This document shows, one piece after another, positions 3,756 to 56,556 of a DNA stretch of 60,427 nucleotides. The notes below the pieces were generated by a model. The model saw only the letters and a list, made by a program, of their open reading frames with translations. It made no database searches and had not been told where the DNA came from. The DNA is from Candidatus Saganbacteria bacterium (GTDB lineage: Bacteria; Margulisbacteria; WOR-1; XYC2-FULL-46-14). Numbering within the stretch: the first letter of the stretch is position 1; the number at the start of each line of letters is the position of its first letter. Both the position numbers and the translations under genes were made by a program. The stretch spans positions 1 to 60,427 of the forward strand of contig JABMQY010000085.1 in assembly GCA_013202975.1 (NCBI GenBank), given 5' to 3'.

Positions 3756-3757
3756 TC

Positions 3758-5014: not shown

Positions 5015-5025
5015 GAGGAATTGAA

Positions 5026-8067: not shown

Positions 8068-8085
8068 ATATAGGAGGGGGAAACA

Positions 8086-9492: not shown

Positions 9493-9529
9493 GATTATAA
9501 TTATGAAAAATAGAGTGAAATTTTTAGTA

Positions 9530-9547
9530 AAAATTGACGATATATAT
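9530..9547 (+). promoter_or_regulatory. Recurring motif AAAATTGACGATATATAT (instance 1), upstream of the T9SS-CTD protein gene
   Basis: Near-identical copies at 53857-53874 (+), 35777-35792 (-), 46229-46251 (-, AAAATTAACGATACATATATAT) and a degenerate copy at ~19381-19396. Confidence 0.45.
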
Positions 9548-9560
9548 AAGGAGGGAAGAT

Positions 9561-11480
9561 ATGTTTAAGAAACTGTTGAATAAATTAATTTCGGTTGGGA
9601 TAGTTGCTTCAATTATTTTGTCAGGATTGGTCGTTTTTGCACTGCCGGTTTTGGCCGACAGCTATAACGCCTATCCGGATACCGGCCAGTATGTTTATGA
9701 AAAGTCGGTCGGTGGGACTAAGCTGGCTGCCGGTAATCTTTTACAGATAATTTATGCTAAGGGTTTAAAACCCCTCCCTCCTAAATCAGACGGATCTCCT
9801 GGAGGCGCAGACGCCTTAATTGATTCAACCGCCAGAACAGTCGGAAATATCGGCGGTGCCGGATATTTCTACTACGCTCTAAATGGATTAACTAATGGAA
9901 ACACCGTCTATATCCGTGTCTGGAATGCTTCTACTCTAAAAGCAGCAACCCATTACGGTGATTCTGCTCCTTTAAAAATAGGTAACCCATTACCTAATCC
10001 TCCCTCTGCCTGGGCAATAAAATCTTTTGCTACATCAAAACCAAAGCCTGTTACAGGACCATCTATAAAGAGTGTTTCTCCTTCGTCCGGAAAACAGGGC
10101 GAAACAATTGCTAAAGTTACAATAGAGGGGTCAGGTACAACTTTTACTTCTAATTCAAAGGTAACATTTGGAAGTGGAATAACTTCGGGTACAGTTAAAT
10201 TATTAAACGCATTAAAGCTTGAAGTTTCTAATGTAAAAATTGCTTCGGATGCTGCTCCTGGCAAGAGAGATGTTACTGTCGACTCTGTTATAGGGAAAAA
10301 CATGTTTGAAGTTAAGGCTCCAACAGCTGCAACCTCAATCGTCATCGACGATTATGAGGGAGCTACAAAATCAGTCTCTGGTAGCGTTACCTTCCCTTCA
10401 GGCAAGGTTAGTTCTTATTATGCTATCGGACCGACAAAGTCTAATGAACCAACGGTTTTAAGACAGACTTCAGTTGCCAAAAAAGATACTTATGCAATGA
10501 AGACCAGCTATTCTGCAAACTCAGATCCTAAAACTTCATATAGAGGATGGGGTGGTATTTTGGTTGCAACCCAGGATGCATCTTCTGTTGATACTCTAAC
10601 CTTTTGGTTAAAAGGTGACGGATCAACTAACAAGGTTAAGTTTCAGGTTAAAGATGCCGATGGTACAAACTTTGGTTTGACCGATGCAAATGCTGTCTCT
10701 CTTTCGTCAACAGATTGGAAAGAGGTTAAGATCAGCTCTTTTAAAACTAAAATGTCTCGTGTAGTGGGGACAACTTCGGGTGATGCAACATTAAATTGGA
10801 ACAAAATTGATCAGTATCAGTTTGTTTTTGCCGGAACCGCAGCATCAACAGGGGTTTATATTGACCATGTTGTTGTATCAAAAGGATCAACTATACCACC
10901 AGTAACCGGCAACCCAAAGATCGATAAGATCAGCAAGTCAAAGGGAAAAGCTGGAATTGAAGTTACTATAACCGGTACAGGATTTGGCTCTGCCGGAAAG
11001 ATTGAGTTTGCCGGAACAGACGCAAAAGCCTATATCGAAAGCCTGTCAACCAAACAAATATCAGCCTGGAGCGCGACCGGCATTACCTTTAAAGTTCCTG
11101 ATATCAAAAAAGGTAAAAAACAATTATCGGTAATTCGCACCAGCGACAGCCTGCAGTCAAACGCAGTAAGCTTTGAAGTATCAGCTTCGGCTGCCGCAGC
11201 ATCATATAACTATCCAAACCCGTTTAACCCAAGCGGAGCAGAGACAACTAAGATTGTATTTGATTCCGGAACAAACACAACTGCTACCATCTATATCTTT
11301 GATACCACAGCCCAGATGGTAGAAAAATTAAACTGGAGCGGAACTGCCGGAGCAAACGAGGTTTCATGGAACGGCAAAAACGCCTTTGGCGAAGTACTTG
11401 GAGACGGAGTTTATCTCTATCGTGTAGCAGCAGGATCAAGCATATTAGGTCGAGGAAAAATCCTCATAATTAATAAATAA
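9561..11480 (+). CDS. Secreted protein with CBM-like domain (YRGWGG) and a C-terminal T9SS-type sorting/FlgD-Ig-like domain (TIGR04183/PF13860-like)
   Basis: Preferred start ATG 9561 (RBS AAGGAGGG, then MFKKLLNKLISVGIVASIILSGLVVFALPVLADS signal). The track ORF starts at 9534. The last ~85 aa (..SYNYPNPFNPSG..TTKIVFD..ATIYIFDTTAQMVEKLNW..GANEVSWNGKNAFGEVLGDGVYLYRV..GKILIINK) match the Por-secretion-tail pattern. Mid-region shares the YRGWGG..YIDHVVVSK module with ORF 5026. Confidence 0.75.
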   Translation: MFKKLLNKLISVGIVASIILSGLVVFALPVLADSYNAYPDTGQYVYEKSVGGTKLAAGNLLQIIYAKGLKPLPPKSDGSPGGADALIDSTARTVGNIGGAGYFYYALNGLTNGNTVYIRVWNASTLKAATHYGDSAPLKIGNPLPNPPSAWAIKSFATSKPKPVTGPSIKSVSPSSGKQGETIAKVTIEGSGTTFTSNSKVTFGSGITSGTVKLLNALKLEVSNVKIASDAAPGKRDVTVDSVIGKNMFEVKAPTAATSIVIDDYEGATKSVSGSVTFPSGKVSSYYAIGPTKSNEPTVLRQTSVAKKDTYAMKTSYSANSDPKTSYRGWGGILVATQDASSVDTLTFWLKGDGSTNKVKFQVKDADGTNFGLTDANAVSLSSTDWKEVKISSFKTKMSRVVGTTSGDATLNWNKIDQYQFVFAGTAASTGVYIDHVVVSKGSTIPPVTGNPKIDKISKSKGKAGIEVTITGTGFGSAGKIEFAGTDAKAYIESLSTKQISAWSATGITFKVPDIKKGKKQLSVIRTSDSLQSNAVSFEVSASAAAASYNYPNPFNPSGAETTKIVFDSGTNTTATIYIFDTTAQMVEKLNWSGTAGANEVSWNGKNAFGEVLGDGVYLYRVAAGSSILGRGKILIINK

Positions 11481-11494
11481 GGGAGGAGAAAGTA

Positions 11495-13324
11495 ATGAAG
11501 AAATTTTTAATCTTTAGTTTTATAGTCGTTAGTTGTTTGTTGTTGGTTGTTGGTTTTGCGCAAGCTGACGTTACCGCAACAGATCCGCTGCGGATTGGTG
11601 TGGGCGCAAGGTCGCTTGGTATGGGCCGCGCATTTGTCGCGGTTGCAGAAGATGCTGATACGATTTTTAGCAACCCGGCCGGATTAGGAGAACTCTATTC
11701 TCCCAAAATTACCAGCATGTATACCACCTTAATGAGCGATGTAAATTACATTGTTTTGGGTGGCGCTTATCCTTTTGGAAAAAACAGCGGTATCGGCGCA
11801 GGGATCATTACCTCAAACGTCGGCGGAATATCACTTTATGACGGGACAGGTACCTCTCTTGGAAGTGCCAGCTGGAACAACAGCTTAATCTTTGCCTCTT
11901 ACGGATTAAAACTGCAGGACGAAAGATTAAAAGTCGGTGGAACATTAAAATATTATACTCAGGGCGGTTCTGGAAACGCGACCGTTGAAGCTGCTGCTGG
12001 ATCAGCCATCGGCCTTGATGCGGGTGTCCTTTATTCTGTATCAGATGCGCTGTCATTAGGTGTTGTTGCACAGAATCCATTAGGCACTAAACTTGAATCA
12101 GGAAACAGTGTTTCAAACGCACTGCCTACAGTTATCAAAACCGGTGTTGCTTACCGTCTTCCGATTGGAGCAGAGGGAAAGCTGACCCTGGCAGCCGATT
12201 ACGACCTGATCAGCAAGCGCTCAAATGCTTTCCATGCCGGAGCAGAATATTTTATAACTCCTATGTTTGCATTAAGGGCCGGACTGGACCAGGATCCTGC
12301 GCCGGAAGGTACAGTTACCAATCTTACTGCCGGTTTAGGGCTTAGGGTTAATGGTATTGCCTTTGATTTTGCCTACCATCCATACGGAAATCTGGCCGAA
12401 GATACTACCTATTATTTTTCACTGGGATTTGTCGGAGCCCCGGAACCAAAGAAACTTGATTTAGAAATGGTGCTTAATTCTCCGGTTGATAAATCAAAAG
12501 TTTATACCGACAGTGTAAAGGTAGCCGGAACACTTAAGGGAAAGTTGGACGGCATCAACGTAAAAGTTAACGGGGTTAATGCGACTTTGTCTTCTAAGGG
12601 AGCTTTTGTTGCTTCTGTTCCTATTGATAAGCTGGGTAAAAAACTGATCCATGTTGAAGCAGTTGATAATAAAGGAAGAAAGATCACAGCAGACCGGCGT
12701 GTATTGCGCCTGGTCAGCTTTAAAGATGTTACCGGCGGCTACTGGGCCAAGAACCCGATCGAAAATACCGGAACTGTCGGTTTGATTCAGGGGTATCCTG
12801 ATGGAAGCTTTAGGCCGGACCGAAGCTTGAGCAGGTCAGAGCTGGCAGCAATTTTGGTTAGAGCAAAAGAATATAAACTTCCCGGACGTCCGGTAAAGGT
12901 TTTCAAAGACGTACCGGCAAACCACTGGGCTGCAGGATACGTTGAGATTGCAAAACGTACCGGTTTGATTAAGGGATATCCTGACGGAAGATTTAGACCC
13001 AACAACCGTATCTCTAATTCAGAGGCAGTAACGGTTATGGCCCGATTTGACGGAATGTCAAAGAAATTTGGAAAGACCGCCTTCTCTGATGTATCTAAAA
13101 AACACTGGTCAGCAGGGTATGTAAATGCCGCACAGGAAGCAGGAATGCTCTCATATGTCAGTGGTACGGAGTTTAATCCAGATAAGTCAGTAACCCGGGC
13201 ACAGTCTGTACAGATGCTGGCAAAGACATCAATGGCAACCAAACTGGTTGATCAGCTCTTATCATGGGACAAGGGTTTCCAATTTGAAATAACCAGGCCG
13301 ACTATTAAAGCAAGTCTTTATTAA
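11495..13324 (+). CDS. FadL/PorV-like outer-membrane beta-barrel (N-terminal hatch with NPA motif) fused to three C-terminal SLH domains
   Basis: Signal peptide MKKFLIFSFIVVSCLLLVVGFAQA. ..GARSLGMGRAFVAVAEDADTIFSNPAGL.. matches the FadL/TodX/PorV N-terminal hatch signature (E. coli FadL [25 protein letters not shown]). Three SLH repeats near the C-terminus (FKDV..W...V.....GLI.GYPDG.FRP...). Confidence 0.75.
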   Translation: MKKFLIFSFIVVSCLLLVVGFAQADVTATDPLRIGVGARSLGMGRAFVAVAEDADTIFSNPAGLGELYSPKITSMYTTLMSDVNYIVLGGAYPFGKNSGIGAGIITSNVGGISLYDGTGTSLGSASWNNSLIFASYGLKLQDERLKVGGTLKYYTQGGSGNATVEAAAGSAIGLDAGVLYSVSDALSLGVVAQNPLGTKLESGNSVSNALPTVIKTGVAYRLPIGAEGKLTLAADYDLISKRSNAFHAGAEYFITPMFALRAGLDQDPAPEGTVTNLTAGLGLRVNGIAFDFAYHPYGNLAEDTTYYFSLGFVGAPEPKKLDLEMVLNSPVDKSKVYTDSVKVAGTLKGKLDGINVKVNGVNATLSSKGAFVASVPIDKLGKKLIHVEAVDNKGRKITADRRVLRLVSFKDVTGGYWAKNPIENTGTVGLIQGYPDGSFRPDRSLSRSELAAILVRAKEYKLPGRPVKVFKDVPANHWAAGYVEIAKRTGLIKGYPDGRFRPNNRISNSEAVTVMARFDGMSKKFGKTAFSDVSKKHWSAGYVNAAQEAGMLSYVSGTEFNPDKSVTRAQSVQMLAKTSMATKLVDQLLSWDKGFQFEITRPTIKASLY

Positions 13325-26625: not shown

Positions 26626-27366
26626 ATGGCTGCCGGCACTTCTTCATATTGGCGCAAGCTTCTGGGGCTGGATCAGCCGGCAGATAAAGATGTTTTTAAA
26701 AAGATACATTCTCCGCATGAAGTATTGAGACCCTTATTTTATTTTCTTTTTGGTCTTCTCTCCCGGCTGCTTTTTCCAATCAAGGTTTATGGTATTGAAA
26801 ATATTCCAAAGCCTCCCTATATAATTTCTCCAAATCACACCAGTGCTTTGGATTTTGCAGTTGTTGCTTTGTGTATTGGGCCAAAGCATAGAAAACAGCT
26901 TTATCCCCTGGCAAGCAAATTCTTCTACGATCATCTGTTCCCAAGGTTTTTTATGCGTACAGCTGCAAATATAGTAAGGATTGATACTGACCAGGCCTTT
27001 TTTCCTGCTTTGAGGGAAGCAGGATCTATTTTACGGTTAGGCCGGTCGGTTTGTATCTATCCCGAGGGCACTCGATCACAAACAGGAGAGCTCTTACCCT
27101 TTAAGGTAGGGGTGGGGATTTTGGCGGTAGAGGCTAATGTTCCGATTGTTCCGGTTTATACCAAAGGGATTTATGAGATTTTGCCGAGCGGTGCGCTAAT
27201 GTTTCGACCTGGTAAAATTAGTATCCATTTTGGTAAGCCGATTGATCCTAAACCTTATATTGGGAAGATTAAAACTACGCAGGCATATGATGTTTATAAA
27301 GAGATTACGGATAATCTTAGGGCTGAGATTCTAAAACTTCTCGATAAAGCTCGACATATTTATTAG
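26626..27366 (+). CDS. 1-acyl-sn-glycerol-3-phosphate (lysophospholipid) acyltransferase, PlsC family
   Basis: HX4D motif (..ISPNHTSALDFAVV..) and ..YPEGTRS.. motif. Confidence 0.8.
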   Translation: MAAGTSSYWRKLLGLDQPADKDVFKKIHSPHEVLRPLFYFLFGLLSRLLFPIKVYGIENIPKPPYIISPNHTSALDFAVVALCIGPKHRKQLYPLASKFFYDHLFPRFFMRTAANIVRIDTDQAFFPALREAGSILRLGRSVCIYPEGTRSQTGELLPFKVGVGILAVEANVPIVPVYTKGIYEILPSGALMFRPGKISIHFGKPIDPKPYIGKIKTTQAYDVYKEITDNLRAEILKLLDKARHIY

Positions 27367-28852
27367 CCTGGGTTGGCCAGGTGTAGTCCAGGGACATTAT
27401 CGCTCGCTGTATTGTTTCCCATGACTCTTTGTTTTGAAATGCCTCCCAGACATTCTTCATCTTGTTAGTTAAATTTGTCGAATTTAGATTATAAAAAGAA
27501 AAACCGGTTTTTCCATATTCAACCGTGTCAATAAGTCCTCCTGTTTCGTGGACTAAGGGAACAGTTCCAAAAAGCTGGGCTTTCATCTGGTTTAAGCCGC
27601 AAGGCTCATACAACGAGGGCATAAGCAGTACATCGCCGCCGGCCAAAGCAAGAATTTCAAGCTTTTCGGAAAACTTAAGATGTTTTAGCTGGTTTGGAAA
27701 TTCCCTGCGGAGAGCTCTGAGTTTGTTGACAAATTCCGGTTCCCCGTCGGCGATAAAGATAAACTGTAATTTTGGGTTTTCCAGGATCATATCTCTAATA
27801 GATTCAAGAGCTACATCTATTCCTTTTTGACCGGCCAGGCGAGAGGTCCAGGTGACGATCATGGCATCTTTGTCGATTGGAAGGCCTGCTTTTTTCTGAA
27901 GAGCTTCTCGATTTATTATTCTTCCATTCAAATCGTTTTTTGAAAAATTTGCAGGTATTATTTTCTTGTCATAAAAATATTGAGGAGTGAAAGATTCTGG
28001 CAGACCATTTAATATCCCGTGCACATCCGGCCGGCGGGTCTCAAGAATCCCCTGATAAAGACTGGCTGGGTAGGGGGTATATCCGCTCAATATTTCATCT
28101 ACATAATGGGGGCTTACTGTTACAATTTTATTACTAAACATTATTGCCGCTTTATGGGCATCCACTTTTCCATGGAACTCAATCCCTTTGTCCCAGCTGT
28201 AGAATGCCGGGTCTTGCTTGAAGGGAAGATTTAGAAGAAATGAGAACTCCCCCAGACTAAGGCGGCTGTCAAATCCATATCCCAGATTGTGAATATTATA
28301 GATAAAAGGAAGATGCGCCGAATTAGGGTACTGTCTTAAGAACAGCGGGATAAAGCCGCTCTGCCAGTCGTGGCCGTGAACAATATCGGGAATAAACATT
28401 TTTAGACTTGGCTGCCCCTCTGCTAATTTATTGATTTTGTGATAGAGCTGATATACTGCCATGTTAAAAAAGAAGAAGCGGTAGGGATCGTCTTTGTAGC
28501 CGTAGAGCTGGGTTCGATTGCCAAAGTGAGAGCAGTCTTCTGTATCGATAAAAAAGAGGTTAAGCCGTCTTCTTTTTCCCTGTTTTAAAAAGGCCCGGTA
28601 AACCTCGCCCTCCACTTTTTGGTCGCCCATCTTGACCTCAAGAGTTGTAAAATGGTCCAGACTCCTGAAATGGTTGCGCAGGAAAAATTCAAGTGTCCCG
28701 GCATGCTTTGGCATAACCACGGTTACTTTATGGCCTTGTTTAACTAACCCTTCACTAAGTCCATAAACGGCATCTGCCATGCCGCCCGATTTTTTGATCC
28801 GGTGCATTTCTGGTGATACCATCCAAATTTTTAAGGGTCTGATTGAAGGCAT
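27317..28852 (-). CDS. Glycogen/starch synthase-like GT5 glycosyltransferase (GlgA paralog 1)
   Basis: N-terminal ..KSGGMADAVYGLSEGL.. (K-x-G-G-L motif); C-terminal ..EPCGLNQMKAQLFGTVPLVHETGGLIDTV.. matches the GlgA consensus. Its 3' end overlaps the convergent plsC-like gene by 50 nt. Confidence 0.75.
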   Translation of the reverse strand: MPSIRPLKIWMVSPEMHRIKKSGGMADAVYGLSEGLVKQGHKVTVVMPKHAGTLEFFLRNHFRSLDHFTTLEVKMGDQKVEGEVYRAFLKQGKRRRLNLFFIDTEDCSHFGNRTQLYGYKDDPYRFFFFNMAVYQLYHKINKLAEGQPSLKMFIPDIVHGHDWQSGFIPLFLRQYPNSAHLPFIYNIHNLGYGFDSRLSLGEFSFLLNLPFKQDPAFYSWDKGIEFHGKVDAHKAAIMFSNKIVTVSPHYVDEILSGYTPYPASLYQGILETRRPDVHGILNGLPESFTPQYFYDKKIIPANFSKNDLNGRIINREALQKKAGLPIDKDAMIVTWTSRLAGQKGIDVALESIRDMILENPKLQFIFIADGEPEFVNKLRALRREFPNQLKHLKFSEKLEILALAGGDVLLMPSLYEPCGLNQMKAQLFGTVPLVHETGGLIDTVEYGKTGFSFYNLNSTNLTNKMKNVWEAFQNKESWETIQRAIMSLDYTWPTQANKYVELYREVLESQP

Positions 28853-28959
28853 TTTTGCTCCCTTTTACCACCTTTTTATCGGATATATTTTTGAGAAATT
28901 TCACTAAATTTTAAAATTTTCCCGCCCTGCGGGATCCCGCCCCGCGGGACAGTCTATTT

Positions 28960-31900
28960 TTATTTTAACAACTTTTGCTGTAGTTTAGCTACTCTTTCTT
29001 GTAACCTTTCTTTTTCCTTTTGATAATATCTTTTGACCCGTGGAATTGTTGCCAGTTCCATTTGTTGGTCTAGTATCCTACACGCTTTTTTAACTTCTCT
29101 TGCATAATGAGTTACTAGAGCGGATAGTGATCCGGTTTTTTTGTTAAGAGCGTCAAAAATTTGTTTCCTGTATGGCTCAAATTCAGGGGAAAGTTCCATA
29201 TCTGCTGCACTCAAAAGATTGAAAGATCTATCTTGAGCAACGCCATAGATGTTGAGATAGCGATTTGCAGCGAGGTCTTCCATTAGTATAGTACTATCAA
29301 TTTTAATTTGAGTAAAATCCAGATCGGTAAAGGTCCATCCCTCAACCATTTTTAATTCGGCTTCTCTTAAAATTGCCCAGCGATTTGAGCTCATTTTTGT
29401 GTAGGAGGGATCGTCTTCTTTTAATAACGCAACCAGCTCGTCAGTGGTTAGATTGAAGATCTCTTTGGGCTTAGAAAAAAATCCACTGGCAACAAAACGT
29501 TTTCCAAGATCAAGCATCATCCTTGCGATTTTCCTCTGAGCCGGAACGATCAGGTGGTGGCCGTCTTCTCTTAGTGCAAGCTGGGCTTTTGAGATTGCCA
29601 GAATCTCTTTCATTTTTGGGTATGCGTCCAGGATACGTATTGCCGAAGACCTTCTCTTATCAGAATCAATTTTCATCTCCAAAACTTTTTGAAAAACCTC
29701 AAGAAGATCCTTCCCGGACATACGGGCATGTCCCTTGAACAAGAGATATAAATTATTATCATCCTTTTTGATCTCTTCCAGATCCGCCTTTTCTATTTGC
29801 TGTGATTCAAGGTGGAGTAGATAGAAATTCAGCAGCATATCTGGCGAGATATTGTTGGCTGTTTTTAACCTGCGTTGGAGGTCAATTAAGTATTCTGGTG
29901 TGTCAGATAAGACCAGAAGATTTTCATTGTTTAGCTTGTATTGATTTGACCATTGCTCGATATAATCTAGAATGTGAGGATGGTGTTTTCTTAATTTTTC
30001 CTCTATATCTGAGGTTGAACCCAAAAAGATATTTAATAGATGTGTGGTTGATCTAATCTGCTCCAGCAGGGCATAGATTTTTTTGTCTTTCTGCCTGGAG
30101 AGGTTCATTACTTTTCTTTTTGGAGTATCCGGACGGTTTGGATCTATTGTTTCATCACAAAGCCAGTCTGCTGCTGCTTCTTCTCTTAAGAAGTTGTGGA
30201 AGGCCCCTTCATCGCTCACATATTTAAGTTGATCAAACGAAAACTTGCCTACAATGGCATCCAGCCAAAAACCAAAATGCATCCATGAAAAAATTTCAAC
30301 CAAATTGTCTACGACTGCTTCCACATTTGATTTGTCAATTCTTTTAACCGGAGCTAGGAATTTTGCAAATTTTTTAAACCCTTCCCAGCGTGCCTCAAAT
30401 AGTTTTTTGCAGTCTTCTACTCTAAAATTGTTAGACCCGACCAAAAAATTATAAATACTTTTAGGGTCATTTGGAGTAACTTTGTGCATTAAGGAAATCC
30501 CATGGGGTTCATTTTTTATCTGACGCTCTTGTGTGGTCAAAACCCAAGGGCGCCGGTTTAAAAACATATCATTTAATATTTCTGTTAATCGGTCCCAGGC
30601 CTTATAATAATAGTCAACTTCAAAAATAGGATATCTGCTTGAGCGGCGGCGCCAATGGCCTTCCAGGTCTTCCAAAAAGACCTCGGCCCTTTTGAGTTTA
30701 CTTAAATCCCAGGGACGAAATATTTCATGCAGATCCAGGCCTTCTGCTTCTTTTTGCACCGATTCTGCGTCAGGAAGCCATTCGTTGAGTCTGCGCTCTT
30801 CCTGGATAATCGGCAGTTCTCCCAAATAAACTGTTTTTCTTTCTGCATCAAAAGTAACATTGAGGCCTTCATGGGGGGATAATTGTTCAATTGCTCCGAC
30901 AACCGATACAAGACAGGGGATTCTTTTTTCAAAGGCGTGCTGTCCGGCATGTGAAGTAGGGTCTCCGTCGGTAGTAATTACTCCGGCCAAAGAGCCAAAA
31001 ACACTGTTAAAGGCGTTGTTAGTATGATGCGTTACCAGGATTACCCCTGGTCGAACCATTGCAGCGTATTTTTCGCTTGTATGAGGCAGGATTTGCATAG
31101 GGGCAACCACTGCTCCGGGGTAGGCTACTTGAGAATTTTTATAAAGGCTCAATTTTGGTAAGCCGGATGGAACTTTAGATAAATCCAGGGTTGAGACCAT
31201 GAAGAACGATTTTCCTTCCTGGTCTTTTTCCTCTCCCTTATCTTTTGAGCGTGCCTGAACCATTACGATTTCGTTATTTCTTTTGTCTAAAACATATTCA
31301 ATATCTATTTCATCGGCCAGTCCTTTTTTTCTATAGGCTTCGTGCACAATTTTAGCAATCTGTCCTATAGCCAAAACATGGTCATCTTCCAGGCTGGGAG
31401 TAGAATCATCAATTTTGTGTTCTGATATCCCACCTTCTTTATTTTCAAGATAACGGGTTTTTTTGTGTTGAATTTTCCTTTCTAATATTTGATCGGCTAA
31501 TAATCCGACCAACCAGCGGTCTGCCAGGCCTTCTCCTTCTACAACTCCTTCACCCTGGCCGGGGTGAGCAGTTATACGATAAACAGGTCGTCTGCTCCCG
31601 GGGTCAAAAGAAAAAACCACTCCTGCTGCTTTTGCGGGTATAAACTCTTGCAGCAGCACTGCCATGCGTGCCATAGAGTGGGGGAAACCCATATCTAATC
31701 TGTATTCCACAAACCCGTCAGAAAATAGGCTTTGCCAGACTTTTATTACACTTTCACAAACCTGATCTATTGTAATTTGGTGAGAGAAAGAATCTGCTCT
31801 GCCTGCGGCAGTATGTTTTTTCATATCTTCTGAGTTTGCAGAACTTCTTACCATAATATCTTGTCCCAGTCTTTCGAATTCTCTCTTAATCTGTTCCAAT

Positions 31901-33339
31901 AAATCAGGCGGAAATTTGATCTTGCCAATTTCATTTCTAATTTTTTGGGCAATCTGCTTTCTTTCTGCTTTTGTGATTGCTTGTTCCAATTGTTTTATCT
32001 GTCTTCGTATATTTGGATTACTTAAGACTAGTTTTTCGTAAGCACAAATAGTAATTGCTGATGTGCGGGGGATTTTTACCCGGGGATTAATTTTGCTTAT
32101 TTTAGCCAGTGTATTGGTGTTTGTCCCTTTTCCTCCGACGATGTGGACAAAACCGGCTGTTTTAGATGTAATATCAACCATATCCGGCAAATGGTGGTCG
32201 GTTGCAGCCCAGGCAGTATCCGACCCAAAATAGGGTGCGGTTAAATCAAGGGCGAATCCGGTCGGATTATGCTTAAATTGGTGCCGGACTTCCAGCCAGT
32301 GCATAAAAACCATATTGTCAGAATCAATTGTTTTTAGTCTATTTACTAGAGTATCGGGATCTGTCCCTTTTTCTAAGGCTGAAGTTGCACTAGCTTTTGC
32401 GTTAACCTTTTTCTGCTGAAGGGTTCTTATTATTTCTTCTTCTTTTTCTGTCAGTCTGCATGCCAGCAGCGAATTCTGGTCAACATTAAATACAGGATAA
32501 ATATATGGAATGGCCGCCCATCTTTTAATTTTTTCTGCAACTTTGATTACCCGGCTTCTGGGAATCGAGGGATCTGTTGCCATTACCGACAGGGCCCTTT
32601 TGTTTCGATCGTAATGGATTAATATTCCATTTAGCTCACTTTTCTTCATTTCCTGATAAATAGTATCTAAAAGCTCTTCTTCTTCATCAGAAAAAGCATA
32701 GAAGTCGTAAGAGATCAATTGGCTGGAATAGCCTTTCTTTGGACCTGCTGTTTTAAAGCGGGAAGGATCCATTGTGACCCCTGTCTCTTTTTTAACCGCC
32801 AGGGCAGCTGCCTGTGTCAGGGTTTGATCTGCTTTGGGTTTTGCGTTTGCTGAGACAGTGTAGGTATTTGCAAAAAGCCTTTTAAATGATCCTCTCTGCT
32901 GCAATAAAACCTTTTCCCCGCTAGAATCAAAGACTAATATTTGTGCTGCACTTTTGATTTTTCCATCACGAAACATCCCCTGATGCCACTTTACTACCTT
33001 GTCCAGCATGATTTTGGTTGTATAGTAATGAGAGAGCAGGGGATCTTCTAAATCTGCACCCTGCAAAAGCTTGGGTTTTATCTCATCCATTATCTCTTCT
33101 AATAAAGGCTTTGCCTCTTCGTATCGTGATTTTGCAAATAAAGCTCTTACATTTCTTAGCTTTGTTTGTACTTGAGTGAGAATATCTTCTCGAAAAAAAA
33201 GATTAGAAATACTGGCCGTAAGTTTTGGAAAAAGTGTTCCGGCATAAGCCGGGAGATCTCTCCGGGCCCTTGTTTTAAGTCTGTGCAGTTTGCTAGAAAG
33301 ACTGTATTTGCATGTCGAAAGCTTACTTAGATAGACCAT
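28960..33339 (-). CDS. 1459-aa multidomain PEP-utilising-enzyme-family dikinase/phosphotransferase (PPDK_N ATP-grasp + phosphohistidine swivel domain) with degenerate Nudix-like N-terminal fold and ~650-aa unknown C-terminal region; candidate glucan,water-dikinase-like enzyme
   Basis: ..FVHIVGGKGTNTNTLAKI..PRVKIPRTSAITICAYEKLV.. and ..VRSSANSEDMKKHTAAGRADSF.. match the PPDK_N/PEP-synthase nucleotide-binding domain. ..ITTDGDPTSHAGQHAFEKRIPCLVSVVG.. matches the PEP-utilisers mobile His domain. Residues ~125-200 (..ILVFDSSGEKVLLQQRGSFKRLFANTYTVSANAKPKADQTLTQAAALAVKKETGV..) fit a Nudix box with the catalytic Glu residues lost. Confidence 0.7.
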   Translation of the reverse strand: MVYLSKLSTCKYSLSSKLHRLKTRARRDLPAYAGTLFPKLTASISNLFFREDILTQVQTKLRNVRALFAKSRYEEAKPLLEEIMDEIKPKLLQGADLEDPLLSHYYTTKIMLDKVVKWHQGMFRDGKIKSAAQILVFDSSGEKVLLQQRGSFKRLFANTYTVSANAKPKADQTLTQAAALAVKKETGVTMDPSRFKTAGPKKGYSSQLISYDFYAFSDEEEELLDTIYQEMKKSELNGILIHYDRNKRALSVMATDPSIPRSRVIKVAEKIKRWAAIPYIYPVFNVDQNSLLACRLTEKEEEIIRTLQQKKVNAKASATSALEKGTDPDTLVNRLKTIDSDNMVFMHWLEVRHQFKHNPTGFALDLTAPYFGSDTAWAATDHHLPDMVDITSKTAGFVHIVGGKGTNTNTLAKISKINPRVKIPRTSAITICAYEKLVLSNPNIRRQIKQLEQAITKAERKQIAQKIRNEIGKIKFPPDLLEQIKREFERLGQDIMVRSSANSEDMKKHTAAGRADSFSHQITIDQVCESVIKVWQSLFSDGFVEYRLDMGFPHSMARMAVLLQEFIPAKAAGVVFSFDPGSRRPVYRITAHPGQGEGVVEGEGLADRWLVGLLADQILERKIQHKKTRYLENKEGGISEHKIDDSTPSLEDDHVLAIGQIAKIVHEAYRKKGLADEIDIEYVLDKRNNEIVMVQARSKDKGEEKDQEGKSFFMVSTLDLSKVPSGLPKLSLYKNSQVAYPGAVVAPMQILPHTSEKYAAMVRPGVILVTHHTNNAFNSVFGSLAGVITTDGDPTSHAGQHAFEKRIPCLVSVVGAIEQLSPHEGLNVTFDAERKTVYLGELPIIQEERRLNEWLPDAESVQKEAEGLDLHEIFRPWDLSKLKRAEVFLEDLEGHWRRRSSRYPIFEVDYYYKAWDRLTEILNDMFLNRRPWVLTTQERQIKNEPHGISLMHKVTPNDPKSIYNFLVGSNNFRVEDCKKLFEARWEGFKKFAKFLAPVKRIDKSNVEAVVDNLVEIFSWMHFGFWLDAIVGKFSFDQLKYVSDEGAFHNFLREEAAADWLCDETIDPNRPDTPKRKVMNLSRQKDKKIYALLEQIRSTTHLLNIFLGSTSDIEEKLRKHHPHILDYIEQWSNQYKLNNENLLVLSDTPEYLIDLQRRLKTANNISPDMLLNFYLLHLESQQIEKADLEEIKKDDNNLYLLFKGHARMSGKDLLEVFQKVLEMKIDSDKRRSSAIRILDAYPKMKEILAISKAQLALREDGHHLIVPAQRKIARMMLDLGKRFVASGFFSKPKEIFNLTTDELVALLKEDDPSYTKMSSNRWAILREAELKMVEGWTFTDLDFTQIKIDSTILMEDLAANRYLNIYGVAQDRSFNLLSAADMELSPEFEPYRKQIFDALNKKTGSLSALVTHYAREVKKACRILDQQMELATIPRVKRYYQKEKERLQERVAKLQQKLLK

Positions 33340-34816
33340 AAAAAAGGTCCTCGTATTCTTTTCCAGAATCGTCCCACAAAAACCTGGTTTGCATCCCTCT
33401 CATTTGTAGGGCACTCCAAACTTCCTCACTATTAAAGACTTCAATGGCACGGTGGATTGCCTCTGCCATCGCAGCTGAAGAATACTCCTCAAATTCAAAG
33501 CCGTTACCGCTTTCTAGATCCCTTGAAATATCAATAATAGTGTCAGCCAATCCGCCGGTTATGCGTACAATAGGAATAGTTCCATATCGCAGCGCGATCA
33601 TCTGGGTTAAGCCGCACGGCTCGTATCGGGAGGGCATTAAAAACATATCACAGGCTGCATAGATTTTTTGGGCCAGATTGCTATCGAAGGCAAGGCGTAA
33701 ACCAAAAGTCTCACCAGAAAGTTTCGAAAGCTCTTGCTCTAATTGCGGGTCGCCGGTACCTAGAAGGACTATCTGTGCCTTATTAGCCAGGCCGGGAATT
33801 ATATCGGGTAATAAACCATATCCTTTTTGTCCCTGATCAATTCTACCGACTGTGCCTATTAGTGGAAGTTTTGGATCATTTGGCAGTCCAAATTCAGCCT
33901 GTAATTCTTCTTTTAGTTTTGCCTTTGCTTCTTTTGCGTTACTTGTTCCATATTTATTATTTCCCAAAGCCTCATCTGTTTCAGGATTCCAGACCTCATA
34001 ATCCAGACCGTTTAATATCCCAAGTAAAATAGGAAGGGCCTGATAAAGGCCTGTTAGACCGACTCCGTAATCGTAACTGTCGTTGGCTCCTCCCCTGACT
34101 TCATTTGCATAGGTTGGACTAACTGTATTAACCGCGTCGGCAAAAATAAGTCCGGCCTTTAATAGGTTAACTGTTTTATAATATTCCAGGGCATCCGGAG
34201 TATATAATTCTCTCCTCAAACCTAATGTGTCTAAAAATGATAGGCCCAGGTTTTTGGGGCCCTGAAAGTTAGCATTGTGAAAGGTAAAGACAGTTTTAAT
34301 GTTTTTCATTTCTGGAACTTCGCTATAAAATTCCTTTAAAAACAGGGGGATCAAAGCGGTTTGCCAATCCTGGCAGTGTATAATATCGGGGACCCAGCCG
34401 GTTTTTCTAATAGTTTCAAGAACTGCGCGGCTAAAAAAGGCAAAACGCATCGGGTTGTCTGGATAGTCGATCCCTTTTTCCCCATAAAGCTCGGGACGGT
34501 CAAAATATTGGGGTTGATCAACTAATAATACCTGAGGGTCAGATTCCTCAACCTTCCATAATGAGCCCCACTTTATTTCATCCCTAATTTGAACATCTAC
34601 TGTTCTTCTTATATGGGTTTGTGAAAAAGAGCGATTTTCTTTTACAGAAAGATAGCGTGGTGTAAGCACCCTGCAATCATGGCCTTGTGTTGCGAGATAT
34701 TTGGGCAATGCACCCGCGACATCAGCCAGGCCTCCGCTTTTAGAAAAGGGGACAACCTCGGAGGCTGCGATTAACAGTTTTAACGGGCGATTTCTTATTG
34801 CCGGCGTTGTATTCAT
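33323..34816 (-). CDS. glgA: Glycogen synthase (GlgA paralog 2, GT5)
   Basis: ..LKLLIAASEVVPFSKSGGLADVAGALPKYLATQGHDCRVLTPRY.. and C-terminal ..SRYEPCGLTQMIALRYGTIPIVRITGGLADTI.. are canonical GlgA motifs. 17-nt overlap with the start of the dikinase gene. Confidence 0.85.
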   Translation of the reverse strand: MNTTPAIRNRPLKLLIAASEVVPFSKSGGLADVAGALPKYLATQGHDCRVLTPRYLSVKENRSFSQTHIRRTVDVQIRDEIKWGSLWKVEESDPQVLLVDQPQYFDRPELYGEKGIDYPDNPMRFAFFSRAVLETIRKTGWVPDIIHCQDWQTALIPLFLKEFYSEVPEMKNIKTVFTFHNANFQGPKNLGLSFLDTLGLRRELYTPDALEYYKTVNLLKAGLIFADAVNTVSPTYANEVRGGANDSYDYGVGLTGLYQALPILLGILNGLDYEVWNPETDEALGNNKYGTSNAKEAKAKLKEELQAEFGLPNDPKLPLIGTVGRIDQGQKGYGLLPDIIPGLANKAQIVLLGTGDPQLEQELSKLSGETFGLRLAFDSNLAQKIYAACDMFLMPSRYEPCGLTQMIALRYGTIPIVRITGGLADTIIDISRDLESGNGFEFEEYSSAAMAEAIHRAIEVFNSEEVWSALQMRGMQTRFLWDDSGKEYEDLFYGLSK

Positions 34817-34857: not shown

Positions 34858-35730
34858 TTAATATATAACCTTATTCAGCGGATATTCAACAATTCCCTCG
34901 GCTCCGGCGCGTTTGAGTTTTGGAATCAAATCACGCACAATGGCTTCTTCAAGGATTGTATCAACATCTACCCATTTATTGTTGGATAGAGGGGCAATGG
35001 TTGGTGTTTGTAGTGCCGGTAAAAGACTTAAAATCTTCTTTAGGTTTGTACAAGGGACATTCATTTTTAGTCCGACCTTGGTTTCTGCAGCCAGTGCTCC
35101 GGTAAGCAACAAAATTAGGTTGTCCATTTTTTGTTTTTTAAATGGATCTTTAACCGCCTCTTTGTTTGAAATGATAACTGTGTTTGATTCAAGAATTGTA
35201 TCAAGGATTTTTAAGTTATTTGCACGAAGGGATGACCCTGTTTCGGTTAATTCAACAATTGCATCGGCCAATTGAGGCGGTTTTGCTTCAGTTGCTCCCC
35301 ATGAGAATTCGACGTTAGCCTTTACTCCGTTTTTCTTTAAATATTTTTTTGTAAGTTCAACAAATTCGGTTGCAATTCTCTTTCCCTCTAAATCTTTTAC
35401 GCTTTTTATTTTAGAATTAGCTAAAGCGGCCAAGACTATTTTAACCTTTTTTAGTCCCTGTTTTGCATAAATAAGATCTGCCAGCTTAATAACCTTGCGC
35501 CCTGATTCCATAACCCAGTCTGTTCCGGTTATTCCACAATCAAGCACCTTTGATTCTACATAGCGGGGCATCTCCTGTGCGCGGATAAGCATACACTCGA
35601 TTTCATCATCATCAATAGTAGGATAGTATGAACGCGAGCTGACTTTAACTATAAAACCAGCTTTTTTTAATAATCTAACGGTGCTCTCCTGCAAGCTTCC
35701 TTTTGGTATTCCTAATTTTAATTTTTTCAT
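34858..35730 (-). CDS. hisG: ATP phosphoribosyltransferase HisG (long form)
   Basis: [26 protein letters not shown].. is the typical HisG N-terminus. Internal ATG 35730 with GGAGGG RBS preferred over the track start 35811, which would run through an upstream promoter-like motif. Confidence 0.8.
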
Positions 35731-35833
35731 TTTAGCCCTCCCTGCCTGCCGATGGGCAGGTGAATTTAATTCTATCATATATATATCGTCAGGTTGAAGG
35801 AAAAATTTCACTTTTTCTCAATTGAGAGCTATA

Positions 35834-36717
35834 ATGAATTAATGCATAAGTCTTATCCTGTTATTTTTGTACATGGGATTGGTGATTCTTCGTTTGTCTG
35901 GAGAGTAACCGGTCCGGAAATCAGCAAGCTGTATGAAAAATATTATGCCCCCTTCAAGTCCGGAAGCGGTATTTTAATAAGTCGATTTGATAAAAACCCA
36001 AAGCACAGCATCCGCAATAGTTGTGTCTATCTGACCTTTAATGACCATTTCTCGGCTCCTGAAGGGCAGGTATCTGAGCTGGCTGAGATTATTTCTGAAG
36101 TAAAAACCGAGGCCGGGGCAGACCGTGTCAATCTGGTTTGTCACTCGATGGGAGGGCTAGTAGCCAGAAAATACCTGGCAGAACATCTAACTAACCATGG
36201 AGTTAATAAATTAGTTATGATTGGGACCCCAAATTTAGGAGCAAATTTATTAAGATTTCATCATCTGCCAACTATTTTGATTGTTGCCGGAATTATTCTT
36301 ACCTTGATTCTACAGAATATCTTTTTTCTTTTAATAACACAGTTGGGACTGATTGTTAGTCTTCTTGCTTATATTCGCGGAGTAAACCTTCTCTCCGGCG
36401 CGGCAGAGGCAATGACCCCGGATTCGCGATTTCTGAAAGTTTTAAATACCAGGAAACTGCCGGCAAATGTTGAGTATGTTTGTCTGCTAAGTAAGGCCAG
36501 AGAGTTTTTTCATTCCTTATTTGGCGGTGATGGTGCGGTACAGCTTGAGAGTCAACAGTTAAGCCGCAAATGCGTGCCAAATTTTGAAGAATTAAATTAT
36601 AAAGAGATATTGATAGGCCGCTCCCATTTTGAGGAGCCCCAGGAGGCGGATGGGATTGTAAAGGCCCTGGGACTGTATTATATGGCCCGTCCAATCAAAC
36701 AGCATCCGGATGAATAG
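35834..36717 (+). CDS. Alpha/beta-hydrolase (lipase/esterase-like, PGAP1-type) with a TM segment
   Basis: ..YPVIFVHGIGDSS.. and nucleophile elbow ..VCHSMGGLVARKY... Start uncertain (35794, 35834 or 35842 possible). Confidence 0.6.
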
Positions 36718-39068: not shown

Positions 39069-40205
39069 TTAAAAGATGCTGATTTGTTTTAGTGGAATCT
39101 TATGTTTCTTTGCCAACTTCTTTATATCTTCAAACTCCGGCGCAGCGGTGATAACCTTATTATCCAGAATTCCTAGTTTAACTTCAACTTTTCCATACTT
39201 AGTTTTAGCTGTCATGAACTTTCTCTTAAGTTTTTCTCGTTTAACTAAAAAAGTACGGACGCCCAGGGAAGTCGTTTCTTTGAATAGTGCTTCTAATACT
39301 TCGAGTTTGTGAAAAGTTTCACAAAGTGCCGTAAGTTTTATTGCTTGCCGTTTTTTCTTCATAAGAATAGGCTCAATCCAAGCGTCTAGAGCGCCGGCTT
39401 TCATTGTTTTCTTAATAGCTTTGTTATAAAGTTTTGGATTCATATCATCAATATTAGCTTCGATTTGTAGAACTGTGTCTGTTTCTGTCTGGATCTCTTT
39501 TTTGCCAAGATAGATTCTTAAAGCATTTGGAAGCTTAGGGATTATATGTCCTCCGGCACCAGCTCCAATATTTTCAAAGACCATGCGCGGTATTTCACCA
39601 AAGCTTTTTGCTAAAGATTTTATCAGAACGACTCCGGTTGGGGTTGCCAGTTCTTTTTTAACTGGTGATCCATAACACGGAATCCCTTTTAGTAGTTCAG
39701 CCGTTGCTGGAGCAGGGACTGGCAGGATTCCATGAGAGTGTTTTACGGTTCCGGAACCTACATTAATAGGGGAGCTGTATATTTCGCTTATTCCTAGTTT
39801 TTTTAGACAAATTAATGTCCCAACGATATCTATTATTGCATCAGTTGCGCCGACTTCGTGCAGATGGACTGTGTCCATTTTTTTACCATGGACTTTGGCT
39901 TCTGCAGCAATCAGAGTTTTGTAAATTTGGATGGCTTTTCTTTTGATGTCAGGCGAGAGTTTGGATTTTGAGATAAGGGCGGTGATTGATGAGAGGGTTG
40001 TCCCATGGTCGCGACCTGTCCGTACATCTACATACCTAGCCTTCAGACCATTCCGGTCGACCTGTTTGATGATGAGCCGATAGGGGGGGAGATGGATCTT
40101 CTTTAGCTCTCCTCGAAGATATGTTTCCGATACTCCAAGATCAAGTAATGCTCCAAGGATCATATTTCCGGCAATTCCGGAGGAGCAGTCAACGTATAAT
40201 AGCAT
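39069..40205 (-). CDS. larC: LarC-family nickel insertion protein (nickel-pincer cofactor biosynthesis, DUF111)
   Basis: N-terminus MLLYVDCSSGIAGNMILGALLDLGVS.. is the hallmark of TIGR00299/LarC. Confidence 0.8.
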   Translation of the reverse strand: MLLYVDCSSGIAGNMILGALLDLGVSETYLRGELKKIHLPPYRLIIKQVDRNGLKARYVDVRTGRDHGTTLSSITALISKSKLSPDIKRKAIQIYKTLIAAEAKVHGKKMDTVHLHEVGATDAIIDIVGTLICLKKLGISEIYSSPINVGSGTVKHSHGILPVPAPATAELLKGIPCYGSPVKKELATPTGVVLIKSLAKSFGEIPRMVFENIGAGAGGHIIPKLPNALRIYLGKKEIQTETDTVLQIEANIDDMNPKLYNKAIKKTMKAGALDAWIEPILMKKKRQAIKLTALCETFHKLEVLEALFKETTSLGVRTFLVKREKLKRKFMTAKTKYGKVEVKLGILDNKVITAAPEFEDIKKLAKKHKIPLKQISIF

Positions 40206-40851
40206 GTGCCATTACCGCAGCCCCAAAACCATTATCAATATTTACCACTGCGACGCCAGGGGCACACGAATTCATCATTGTTAAAAGTGCGGATAGCCCT
40301 TTAAAGTTTGCGCCATAACCGACCGATGTTGGAACGGCAATTACCGGAGCTTCTACCAGTCCGCCAACAACTGAGGGGAGGGCCCCCTCCATGCCGGCGA
40401 CAACAATAATCACTTTTGCTTTTTCGAGTTTGTCTAGATTTTGGGTTAAGCGATGAATTCCGGCTACTCCAACATCATAAAGTCTCTCTGTTTTTATTCC
40501 AAGAAATTCAGCGGTAACAGCCGCTTCTTCTGCTACAGGTATGTCGGCGGTGCCGGCGGTAATAATTAAGCAGGGTTTAGGGTTTGGGGTATAGGGTATA
40601 GTTTTTGAGATAGTGATTATTTTTGCTTCTTTATGATACGTTGCCTTCCTCAGGGCTTTCTTGACGGCTTTATAGACTTCTACCGACGCTCGGGTCATTA
40701 AAACCGGATGTTTCTTTTTATTGATACTCTTTGCGATCTCGACAATTTGTTTTGTGGTTTTTCCGGGACAATAAATGACCTCAGGAAAGCCCTTGCGTTT
40801 TATGCGGTGGTGATCAACTTTGGCAAAACCGAGTTCTTCGTAGTGGTTCAT
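40189..40851 (-). CDS. larB: LarB (PurE-like nickel-pincer cofactor biosynthesis carboxylase/hydrolase)
   Basis: C-terminal ..AGMEGALPSVVGGLVEAPVIAVPTSVGYGANFKGLSALLTMMNSCAPGVAVVNIDNGFGAAVMA.. matches LarB/PurE-like proteins. Confidence 0.75.
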   Translation of the reverse strand: MNHYEELGFAKVDHHRIKRKGFPEVIYCPGKTTKQIVEIAKSINKKKHPVLMTRASVEVYKAVKKALRKATYHKEAKIITISKTIPYTPNPKPCLIITAGTADIPVAEEAAVTAEFLGIKTERLYDVGVAGIHRLTQNLDKLEKAKVIIVVAGMEGALPSVVGGLVEAPVIAVPTSVGYGANFKGLSALLTMMNSCAPGVAVVNIDNGFGAAVMAHAIIR

Positions 40852-55740: not shown

Positions 55741-56556
55741 TTAATCTGTCCTCCTTTCTCTCTTTCGAATAACAATTTTTACAACTTCTCCGCCATTGAT
55801 AGCGCTTTTTTGATCTTTGAAATAGAAGAATACATTTTTCATGTCAGGTCTTCTGGCTGCAAAGTTTTCTTCTACTAATTTTGATTCTAGGGCAAATGGT
55901 TTGATTTTCCTGTTGTAATTTAGAGCAAGTAAGCGATGTTTATTGTATCCTTTACCACCTAATTTTGCGGGGCTTGCGATAAAACGGTCTTTCTTTGAAG
56001 TGGGACGGATATCGTATAGCCCTATTCCTTCTTGATTTCTGAAATCATCATGTAAACCAAAAAGGTTGCAGTTTCCGACCCCAAAACCTCCTTTAGTTTT
56101 AGCTGCATGTGAATAAATGACAATATACTTAACTTTAAAATCATCCGGGTTTGTTTTTTCTAATTCTTTTCCAAGGGTTTCCAAGGGTATAGATGCTACT
56201 TTATTATTGTCTTTGCACCATTTCTCGAATGGGCCGTTTGTTATTCCGACTATAATTTGCGGATCGTTGAATTGAAACCCTTCGAAGATTTTCTTGTCAG
56301 GCGTTATTCCATGAATGTATTGTATATTCCTTATCTCTTTATCTTTTAAGGTTTTTAGGAGGTTTTTGGGGATTGGTTTGCCGAGCATAACGTTTCCAAT
56401 GCCGTCATTATGAATTAAATAAGCGTCAATACTTGAAGAATCTTCTTTTCTGATCATTTCTGGTATTTTTATGGCGGCAAAGATTGCCAAAGCCGTAAAA
56501 ATGACCAAAACGTAAATTGAAATTCGAATTATTAAAAAGAGTGTTTTATTGTTCAT
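55741..56556 (-). CDS. Membrane-anchored hypothetical protein (271 aa), translationally coupled to the upstream serpin gene
   Basis: N-terminal TM ..LFLIIRISIYVLVIFTALAIFAAI..; ATGA start/stop overlap with the serpin; RBS AGGAGGAAAA inside the serpin 3' end. Confidence 0.55.
   Translation of the reverse strand: MNNKTLFLIIRISIYVLVIFTALAIFAAIKIPEMIRKEDSSSIDAYLIHNDGIGNVMLGKPIPKNLLKTLKDKEIRNIQYIHGITPDKKIFEGFQFNDPQIIVGITNGPFEKWCKDNNKVASIPLETLGKELEKTNPDDFKVKYIVIYSHAAKTKGGFGVGNCNLFGLHDDFRNQEGIGLYDIRPTSKKDRFIASPAKLGGKGYNKHRLLALNYNRKIKPFALESKLVEENFAARRPDMKNVFFYFKDQKSAINGGEVVKIVIRKRERRTD

Follow-up and report, generated by a model that had tools for sequence, protein, structure and literature searches.

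A 1459-amino-acid open reading frame (ORF) from Candidatus Saganbacteria bacterium is very probably a dikinase of a rare phospho-histidine swivel family. It lies on the minus strand at 28960-33339 of contig JABMQY010000085.1 (assembly GCA_013202975.1, positions 1-60,427), a 60-kb stretch that we refer to in its entirety as the window. Pfam, NCBIfam, profile searches and hidden Markov model (HMM) mapping divide the protein into four modules, which together we call the cassette: an N-terminal module (N-module) with a degenerate Nudix core, an ATP-grasp domain, a swivel domain and a C-terminal module (C-module) of about 620 amino acids (aa). The family is rare, conserved and undescribed, and is common to free-living uncultured bacteria and to giant proteins of the Omnitrophota. 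Judging from its sequence and from the partners of its relatives, we lean towards regarding the window protein as a stand-alone member of this family, with a sugar, a nucleotide-sugar or a glycan as the leading guess for its acceptor. The ORF is flanked by two glgA genes, an arrangement that a first-pass annotation of the sequence had taken to suggest a bacterial glucan phosphorylation system resembling the plant glucan,water dikinase (GWD).

The dikinase core

Residues 399-708 (31216-32145, minus strand) form a PpsA-type ATP-grasp nucleotide-binding domain (PPDK_N, PF01326, E 2.8e-56), and residues 763-833 (30841-31053, minus strand) form a phospho-histidine swivel domain (PEP-utilizers, PF00391, E 5.3e-10). 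The catalytic His797, encoded at 30949-30951 (minus strand), lies in the motif TSHAGQHA. Beyond these two domains nothing in the large ORF scored above the Pfam threshold. Together they are collinear with residues 36-500 of a phosphoenolpyruvate (PEP) synthase (PDB 9dae), and His797 (TSHAG) aligns with the catalytic histidine of that enzyme (GGMTSHAA). The GGKG and VRSSAxxED nucleotide-binding motifs are kept in the ATP-grasp domain, and K404, R498, E504, D505 and H797 are invariant in the family alignment. As far as the sequence can tell, the protein looks fully equipped for the first half-reaction, with its ATP-grasp domain and swivel histidine both complete, and the dikinase chemistry that the first-pass annotation had assigned to the protein is borne out by both Pfam matches and by the alignment of His797.

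The best family-level match in NCBIfam is PEP synthase (NF005057), with 197 bits against a cut-off of 598 and with residues 397-853 of the window protein falling on model positions 17-476. The rifampin phosphotransferase (RPH) model NF041857 reached 154.6 bits against a cut-off of 999, over the ATP-grasp part only, and the PigC and RedH models behaved likewise; all of the NCBIfam scores are far below the equivalog cut-offs. PpsA carries a C-terminal PEP/pyruvate TIM barrel (PF02896), whereas Pfam found no match to it in the large ORF, as had been noted before, and the window protein has the N- and C-modules in addition. We therefore rejected PEP synthase proper as an identification, and the label 'PEP synthase' is unsuited to these proteins.

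The pseudo-Nudix N-module

The N-module (residues 23-398; 32146-33273, minus strand), as delimited by its HMM and by an AlphaFold model (pLDDT 71.2, pTM 0.66), consists of a Nudix-fold core set between a helical hairpin and a helical linker. The module is kept across the family, with the HMM matching 30 N-modules in family members. The core itself (residues 125-297; 32449-32967, minus strand) is IPP isomerase-like and contains a degenerate Nudix box, SANAKPKADQTLTQAAALAVKKETGV, at 32770-32853 (minus strand). The REUXEE element of the box is replaced by LAVKKE in the window protein (...AALAVKKETGV), and xAVxxE is found in all 30 of the aligned N-modules; of the full box, GX5EX7REUXEEXGU, only one Glu and the Gly are retained in the same 30. 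The first-pass annotation was thus right about the Nudix fold and the dead box, although its term 'beta-grasp' for this segment was wrong.

A LLQxRGxFKRLF...TVSAN motif is strongly conserved in the N-modules, and the Nudix profile PF00293 scores 16.8 bits on the N-module of the window protein, below its gathering score of 21.1. The structural neighbours of the module include MutT/Nudix proteins, hydrolases of ADP-ribose and of nucleoside diphosphate (NDP) sugars (NUDT14, GDP-mannose mannosyl hydrolase and ADP-ribose pyrophosphatases are the NDP-sugar-type neighbours), and the non-catalytic regulators NrtR and AraR; IPP isomerase is the closest in structure. In an alignment read by eye, the catalytic Cys and the metal-binding His of type 1 IPP isomerase appear to be replaced (TVSANAK). 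An active Nudix hydrolase was rejected because the box is dead, and the pseudo-Nudix domain is best seen as a putative ligand-binding pseudo-enzyme. It differs from NrtR and AraR in being fused to a dikinase and not to a DNA-binding domain.

The C-module and its distant relatives

The C-module (residues 836-1459; 28963-30834, minus strand) is presumed to hold the acceptor and second phosphotransfer site. It is entirely helical in its AlphaFold model (pLDDT 69.5). The first-pass annotation had found no recognisable similarity here, and this stands as far as Pfam is concerned (no match for the C-terminal 612 aa at E values up to 10), as does a sequence-profile search of the PDB, which returned no match; distant relatives among the RPH-like proteins, however, were recovered with hhalign and Foldseek. 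Against a set of 14 RPH-like proteins, hhalign aligned the C-module at 93.7% probability (E 1.8e-7) over 268 columns. With a 13-sequence C-module query the RPH-like match was 73.6% (E 2.9e-5) over 69 columns that have the RE helix and the LREDGHH segment at their centre, and sub-threshold matches of the C-module HMM land on that region in many RPH-like proteins. In a Foldseek search of the PDB, RPH ranks second and fourth with the top probabilities, 0.77 and 0.80, but with E values of 0.3-0.5 that are not significant.

The most conserved block of the C-module is the LREDGHHLIVPAQRK motif (LREDGHHLIVPxQRK; residues 1256-1270; 29530-29574, minus strand), in which H1261 and Q1268 never vary, not even among the most divergent family members. 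R1257 and E1258 align with the invariant Arg-Glu pair of the RPH family, Arg666-Glu667. In the Listeria enzyme these two residues contact the phosphate and His825, and replacing either with Ala abolishes rifampin phosphorylation while the ATP half-reaction is kept (PMC4844700). We suggest with moderate confidence, from profile comparison, that the C-module, though permuted in position and enlarged, is related to the RPH-type acceptor domain and would host the second phosphotransfer. One further protein, P0021 (1396 aa, with ATP-grasp, swivel and a long C-terminus), was not counted as a family member: the C-module HMM missed it, although MAFFT placed its ENEHH under EDGHH.

RPH and its relatives (PigC/HapC, HpeHI, CreHI and the phenylphosphate synthase PpsAB) are built from the same parts as the window protein, namely an ATP-grasp domain, a phospho-histidine swivel and a largely helical domain, which in the window protein is only the presumed acceptor domain, and the expected products, AMP and Pi, are alike. 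The window protein might be a small-molecule dikinase of their kind that acts on something other than a carbohydrate, for instance a xenobiotic, an antibiotic, a phenolic compound or a biosynthetic intermediate, and its position beside glgA would then be incidental. The characterised enzymes with RPH-type acceptor domains all act on small hydroxylated molecules (PMC4844700, PMC12167813), and the partial NCBIfam matches, the C-module signals and the unconserved gene context of most stand-alone copies are in keeping with such a role. However, the order of domains is ATP-grasp, helical, swivel in RPH and ATP-grasp, swivel, helical in the window protein; the helical domain has about 430 aa in the former and some 200 aa more in the latter; the homology between the two can be detected by profile-profile comparison only, and every score falls far short of its equivalog cut-off. 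The pseudo-Nudix module has no counterpart in RPH-like enzymes, and the partners of the cassette are glycosyltransferases, radical SAM enzymes and nucleotide-type hydrolases, not genes of aromatic catabolism or resistance. We therefore consider a non-carbohydrate acceptor of this sort rather unlikely. Nevertheless, a rifampin-phosphotransferase-like enzyme, which the first-pass annotation had offered as its alternative, gains ground from the hhalign and Foldseek results, and the match to a small-molecule-binding domain that was to count against a glucan system has been found in part, as distant homology to the RPH acceptor domain.

A rare family shared with giant proteins

Only three full-length relatives of the window protein, with 44%, 43% and 32% identity, came out of a word-indexed search of 5.8 billion proteins. 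An exhaustive profile search with the C-module among 1.84 billion cluster representatives gave 122 matches, 56 of them below 1e-30, and local HMM mapping located the full four-part cassette in about 35 representatives. The hosts overall are Saganbacteria-like genomes, Omnitrophota, Planctomycetota, Elusimicrobia, Acidobacteria and some Proteobacteria; among GTDB species representatives the cassette occurs in Omnitrophota (six loci), Planctomycetota, Elusimicrobia, Bryobacteraceae, Methylococcaceae and Competibacteraceae. Searches of viral contigs and plasmids returned no copies of the cassette, and so give no evidence of gene mobility.

The cassette is often embedded in proteins of 2000-6366 aa (in Omnitrophota, Elusimicrobia and Planctomycetota), some of which have two N-modules. 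A preprint on the giant genes of Omnitrophota counts PPDK_N, NUDIX and Radical_SAM among the intracellular domains that occur most often in the 'Archaeovorin' proteins and describes an IPP-isomerase-like fold seen by structure prediction only, and it neither treats the cassette as a unit nor gives it a function (bioRxiv 10.1101/2023.11.21.568195). These Archaeovorin domains are very probably the same dikinase cassette. The giants hold the whole four-module cassette inside them, whereas the window protein is free-standing and has no transmembrane or extracellular parts.

The motif RSE[MT]R occurs 16 times in five giant homologues (P0080, P0084, P0085, P0098 and P0105; for example at residue 1761 of P0084 and residues 536 and 2343 of P0085) and is absent from the window protein. 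It often stands a few residues ahead of an N-module or directly behind a C-module, bracketing the cassette. A role as linker or processing site is conceivable and would agree with the proposal that the giants undergo cleavage (bioRxiv 10.1101/2023.11.21.568195). A Planctomycetales metagenome-assembled genome (MAG) has two tandem cassette genes (1128 and 1436 aa, with an overlapping junction) followed by a radical SAM partner (L004, 4457-12137). In a Competibacteraceae MAG the cassette is split over three overlapping or adjacent ORFs of 591, 247 and 318 aa (L013, 6421-9707), and this copy may be a pseudogene or an assembly frameshift. The matches also included dikinases of other unusual layouts. 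P0129 (2389 aa) has PPDK_N, swivel and part of a C-module, then an ATP-grasp_5 and a succinyl-CoA-ligase-like domain, and P0026 and P0028 have two or three swivel domains. P0043 (1819 aa) runs from a swivel through an LMWPc phosphatase to a C-terminal PPDK_N, a GWD-like order.

Recurrent partners and the acceptor

When all ORFs of loci L001-L015 and of the window were compared with one another, the sole conserved neighbour was a radical SAM gene shared by L004 and L005. Its orthologues (about 525 aa) lie directly downstream of the cassette in four genomes (L004, L005, L027 and L028) and are 51-57% identical between lineages; the organism of L027 is related to that of the window (63% identity for MgsA, 66% for LarB). 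The best PDB matches of this partner are BlsE (2e-6) and DesII (8e-4), both modest and both in the radical SAM core. BlsE, a cytosylglucuronate decarboxylase, and DesII act on nucleoside- or nucleotide-sugars. Another radical SAM domain, unrelated to the first, precedes the dikinase core as a fusion in a sub-clade that has no N-module (P0074, P0082, P0086, P0096 and P0126) and gives marginal matches to viperin-like enzymes and to BlsE; a third follows directly after the C-module in P0085. By eye, a histidine-triad-like motif can be seen after the fused radical SAM domain of P0082 (HLHCHLY) and P0086 (HLHVHIY), which suggests a candidate HIT or GalT-like nucleotide-binding domain between radical SAM and dikinase core in these two proteins.

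Other fusions and neighbours are of a similar kind. An active-looking NUDIX domain is fused in four of 20 giants and in P0126 (Pfam), and the other fused domains include HD, His_Phos_1, methyltransferase, dCMP deaminase and GFO/IDH/MocA. An orthologous glycosyltransferase of family 4 (GT4) is fused in P0082 and, directly after the C-module, in P0126. At L003 the downstream genes encode GT2, WbsX, GFO/IDH/MocA and radical SAM proteins. The common thread of these partners is the enzymology of sugars, nucleotide-sugars or nucleotides. A GT-B glycosyltransferase stands beside the cassette in at least two independent settings, GT5 in the window and GT4 in the giants, and a carbohydrate-related acceptor is therefore plausible, with glycogen not specifically indicated.

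Several observations weigh against our overall reading, its mechanism and its acceptor alike. No conserved neighbours flank most of the stand-alone copies, and the carbohydrate and nucleotide-sugar theme rests on few independent associations. The weak likeness of the radical SAM partners to BlsE, DesII and viperin could reflect their generic core. The Arg and Glu that align with RPH are replaced in divergent members of the family, leaving the His and Gln of the motif as its only invariant residues.

The same partners could also be read as a nucleotide-centred modification or conflict-type pathway, in which the dikinase would phosphorylate, for example, a modified nucleoside or nucleotide that a viperin-like radical SAM enzyme had produced, and the pseudo-Nudix would be a nucleotide site. 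The active Nudix, HD, His-phosphatase, dCMP-deaminase and HxHxH histidine-triad-like domains of the giants fit such a pathway, as does the weak viperin-like character of one radical SAM clade (PADLOC pVip 4.4e-5; 7n7h, E 0.003). That similarity is marginal, however, and PADLOC gave nothing for the dikinase or for its neighbours, the two GlgA proteins, and in the two giants that were scanned it gave only the marginal pVip match of one of them. No locus examined had a defence-island context, and viral contigs and plasmids yielded no copies. In view of the PADLOC results we have not adopted a defence-system reading, and we regard a nucleotide-centred pathway as very unlikely.

The glgA neighbourhood

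The segment 27317-34816 is filled by three co-oriented genes on the minus strand, glgA-1 (33323-34816, 497 aa), the dikinase ORF and glgA-2 (27317-28852, 511 aa), and the layout and domains given in the first-pass annotation were all recovered at their positions. Both glgA genes encode genuine GT5 glycogen synthases. Each protein has PF08323 and a GT1 C-terminal domain by Pfam, and each exceeds the TIGR02095 cut-off of 328.45 bits, the canonical GlgA-1 with 510.6 bits and the divergent GlgA-2 with 349.7 bits; they are only 30% identical to each other. An EPCGL motif is present in both, as had been claimed (YEPCGL in each). The KxGGL motif, claimed likewise for both, is found in GlgA-1 (SKSGGL), but GlgA-2 has KSGGM in its place (KKSGGM).

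The dikinase ORF begins before glgA-1 ends, the stop codon of the latter falling 17 nt within the former, and a GAGGA ribosome-binding site stands ahead of the dikinase ATG. The overlap reported earlier is thus real, and the second paralog does follow, but after a spacer of 107 nt. Read directly, this spacer contains two GC-rich hairpins, tcccgcggggcggga and tcccgcagggcggga, and then an A/T-rich run (28907-28949, minus strand); a hairpin scan called the first hairpin on the plus strand at 28935-28949. The pair of hairpins with the A/T-rich run looks like a putative terminator, and glgA-2 has its own ribosome-binding site (aagggag) after the hairpins. Since there is an overlap at one junction and hairpins with a separate Shine-Dalgarno sequence at the other, the firm junction is that of glgA-1 with the dikinase, and glgA-2 may be transcribed separately.

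The closest orthologue of glgA-2 allows this arrangement to be compared with a relative. The subfamily to which GlgA-2 belongs is specific to its lineage; the orthologues share 76%, 62%, 59% and 53% identity with it, and one carries the label Saganbacteria. The contig of the 76% orthologue (L016) is syntenic with the window on both sides, with tblastn identities of 72% for rmlC, 92% for hisG, 76% for glgA-2, 61% for the AMP-ligase, 66% for Yip1 and 83% for Lactamase_B_2. On that contig glgA-2 comes directly after hisG, with neither glgA-1 nor the dikinase between them; hence these two genes are a two-gene indel between hisG and the resident glgA-2. In the window, hisG (34858-35811, minus strand) lies 41 nt upstream of glgA-1 and forms the left edge of the indel. 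The base composition and GC3 of glgA-1 and the dikinase show no anomaly relative to their neighbours, so that gain and loss cannot be told apart. We take this as mild evidence, from a single case, that glgA-1 and the dikinase go together as a pair within this lineage. A further, weak link comes from a conserved trpBA neighbourhood, in which the dikinase lies between clpB and trpBA in L001 and L025 and a glgA-2-like gene lies across trpBA in L017-L020.

These findings bear on a true alpha-glucan dikinase, which would phosphorylate the glycogen product of the flanking GlgA proteins in the manner of GWD and PWD, with the pseudo-Nudix binding ADP-glucose or a glucan end. Such an enzyme would fit the glgA-1 overlap and the glgA-2 gene next on the same strand, the joint presence or absence of glgA-1 and dikinase relative to the closest syntenic contig, and the placement of dikinase and glgA-2-like genes on opposite sides of trpBA. 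It would also fit the NDP-sugar hydrolases among the structural neighbours of the N-module, the GT-B glycosyltransferases fused to the cassette in two giants, and the HD and His_Phos_1 phosphatase domains fused in others, which recall the plant kinase/phosphatase cycle. GWD and PWD share the ATP-grasp and phospho-histidine chemistry with the window protein, and in this one genome there are alpha-glucan synthase neighbours. However, among 19 other distinct cassette loci (L001-L015, L025 and L027-L029), none has a homologue of either GlgA within flanks of about 8-10 kb, so the cassette family shows no conserved association with glucan genes. The closest relatives of glgA-1 have at most 47% identity, come from several phyla and include no close orthologue, and no dikinase was found near them. 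Adjacency alone is no proof of shared function when hisG is part of the same gene string.

The protein itself also differs from the plant enzymes. In GWD the His domain precedes a C-terminal nucleotide-binding domain. The order is reversed in the window protein (PPDK_N at 399-708 before the swivel at 763-833), and 620 further residues follow, in a C-module that resembles a small-molecule acceptor domain. Neither CBM45, as in GWD, nor CBM20, as in PWD, nor any other carbohydrate-binding module (CBM) was matched by Pfam in the N- and C-terminal regions at E values up to 10, and no beta-sandwich domain was found by Pfam or in the models. No glgB, glgC, glgP or glucan phosphatase gene, the companions for which a search had been recommended, was found in the 60-kb window. 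Because the glgA-dikinase-glgA sandwich is peculiar to this genome, a bacterial starch-kinase-like system is only weakly supported, and the GWD-like glucan system of the first-pass annotation is borne out only in part. We consider it unlikely that the window protein is a glycogen dikinase.

Three minor observations concern the genes around the two glgA. The 3' end of an acyltransferase gene (PF01553; 26626-27366, plus strand) overlaps the 3' end of glgA-2 by 50 nt, and at its position the syntenic contig has a small PP-binding carrier protein beside the AMP-ligase (L016, 11509-11745). This swap is a second minor difference between two loci that are otherwise syntenic; L016 also lacks the alpha/beta hydrolase gene found at 35794-36717 of the window. 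On a Margulisiibacteriota contig (L023, 6931-9452), a GalT-type gene (GalP_UDP_transf) directly precedes one of the closest relatives of glgA-1.

Proposed mechanism and significance

The window protein works like a His-swivel dikinase, yet it lies outside the PpsA, RPH, GWD/PWD and Nudix hydrolase families. It has no TIM barrel and a low score for PpsA, a permuted order and a low score for RPH, no CBM, a different order and no conserved glucan link for GWD/PWD, and a dead box for the Nudix hydrolases; it is therefore a member of no named family. The expected reaction would be ATP + acceptor + H2O -> AMP + Pi + phospho-acceptor. By homology, the ATP-grasp domain would hold ATP, and His797 would pick up the beta-phosphate with release of AMP and Pi. 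The swivel domain would then carry the phosphate to the predicted C-module site (R1257, E1258, H1261 and Q1268), where it would pass to a hydroxyl or phosphate group of the acceptor. From its fold and conservation, the pseudo-Nudix would bind a phosphate-bearing ligand such as a nucleotide or nucleotide-sugar, and could serve either in acceptor recognition or as an allosteric sensor like NrtR and AraR. The acceptor would be a sugar, a nucleoside- or nucleotide-sugar, or a glycan made from such a unit, and not glycogen in particular, because of the recurrent partners of the cassette: BlsE/DesII-like and other radical SAM enzymes, GT4 and GT5 glycosyltransferases, GFO/IDH/MocA proteins, active Nudix, HD and His-phosphatase domains. 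In this genome the dikinase would have been gained or lost with glgA-1 as a two-gene unit.

A bolder version of the sugar or glycan acceptor would make the family an independent bacterial glycan-directed dikinase, combining a PpsA core, an RPH-like acceptor domain and an NDP-sugar-binding pseudo-Nudix, with GlgA glycogen as the target in Saganbacteria and other glycans in the Omnitrophota giants. We think this quite improbable; if true, it would be a bacterial counterpart of the plant starch phosphorylation cycle. Were the acceptor a glucan, this would be, to our knowledge, the first evidence of plant-type enzymatic glycogen phosphorylation in bacteria.

The His-swivel dikinases are a small class with diverse acceptors, among them pyruvate, starch, rifampin, phenols and prodiginine precursors. 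The family described here adds a new fixed architecture, with a dead Nudix in front and a permuted RPH-like acceptor module behind, and is confined to poorly known and mostly uncultured lineages. The identity of its acceptor would annotate a conserved part of the Omnitrophota giants, whose enzymology is essentially unknown, and would reveal what a dead Nudix domain contributes to a dikinase.

Other features of the window

Homologues of LarC (PF01969) and LarB adjoin at 39069-40851 (minus strand) and are also found together in L027 (6945-8877); LarC is a nickel insertion protein and LarB is AIR carboxylase-like, and both make the lactate racemase cofactor. A bacterial serpin of 504 aa is encoded at 56553-58067 (minus strand; PF00079, E 8e-126), and about 138 aa of it form an N-terminal extension. 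At 738-13324 (plus strand) there is a run of large, probably secreted or cell-surface proteins with CBM_11, fn3, SBBP beta-propeller, TIG, Glucodextranase-B and SLH domains, including two ORFs of about 1000 aa, one of them without a Pfam match. The run resembles an S-layer locus or one for extracellular glycan binding and has no connection with the dikinase.

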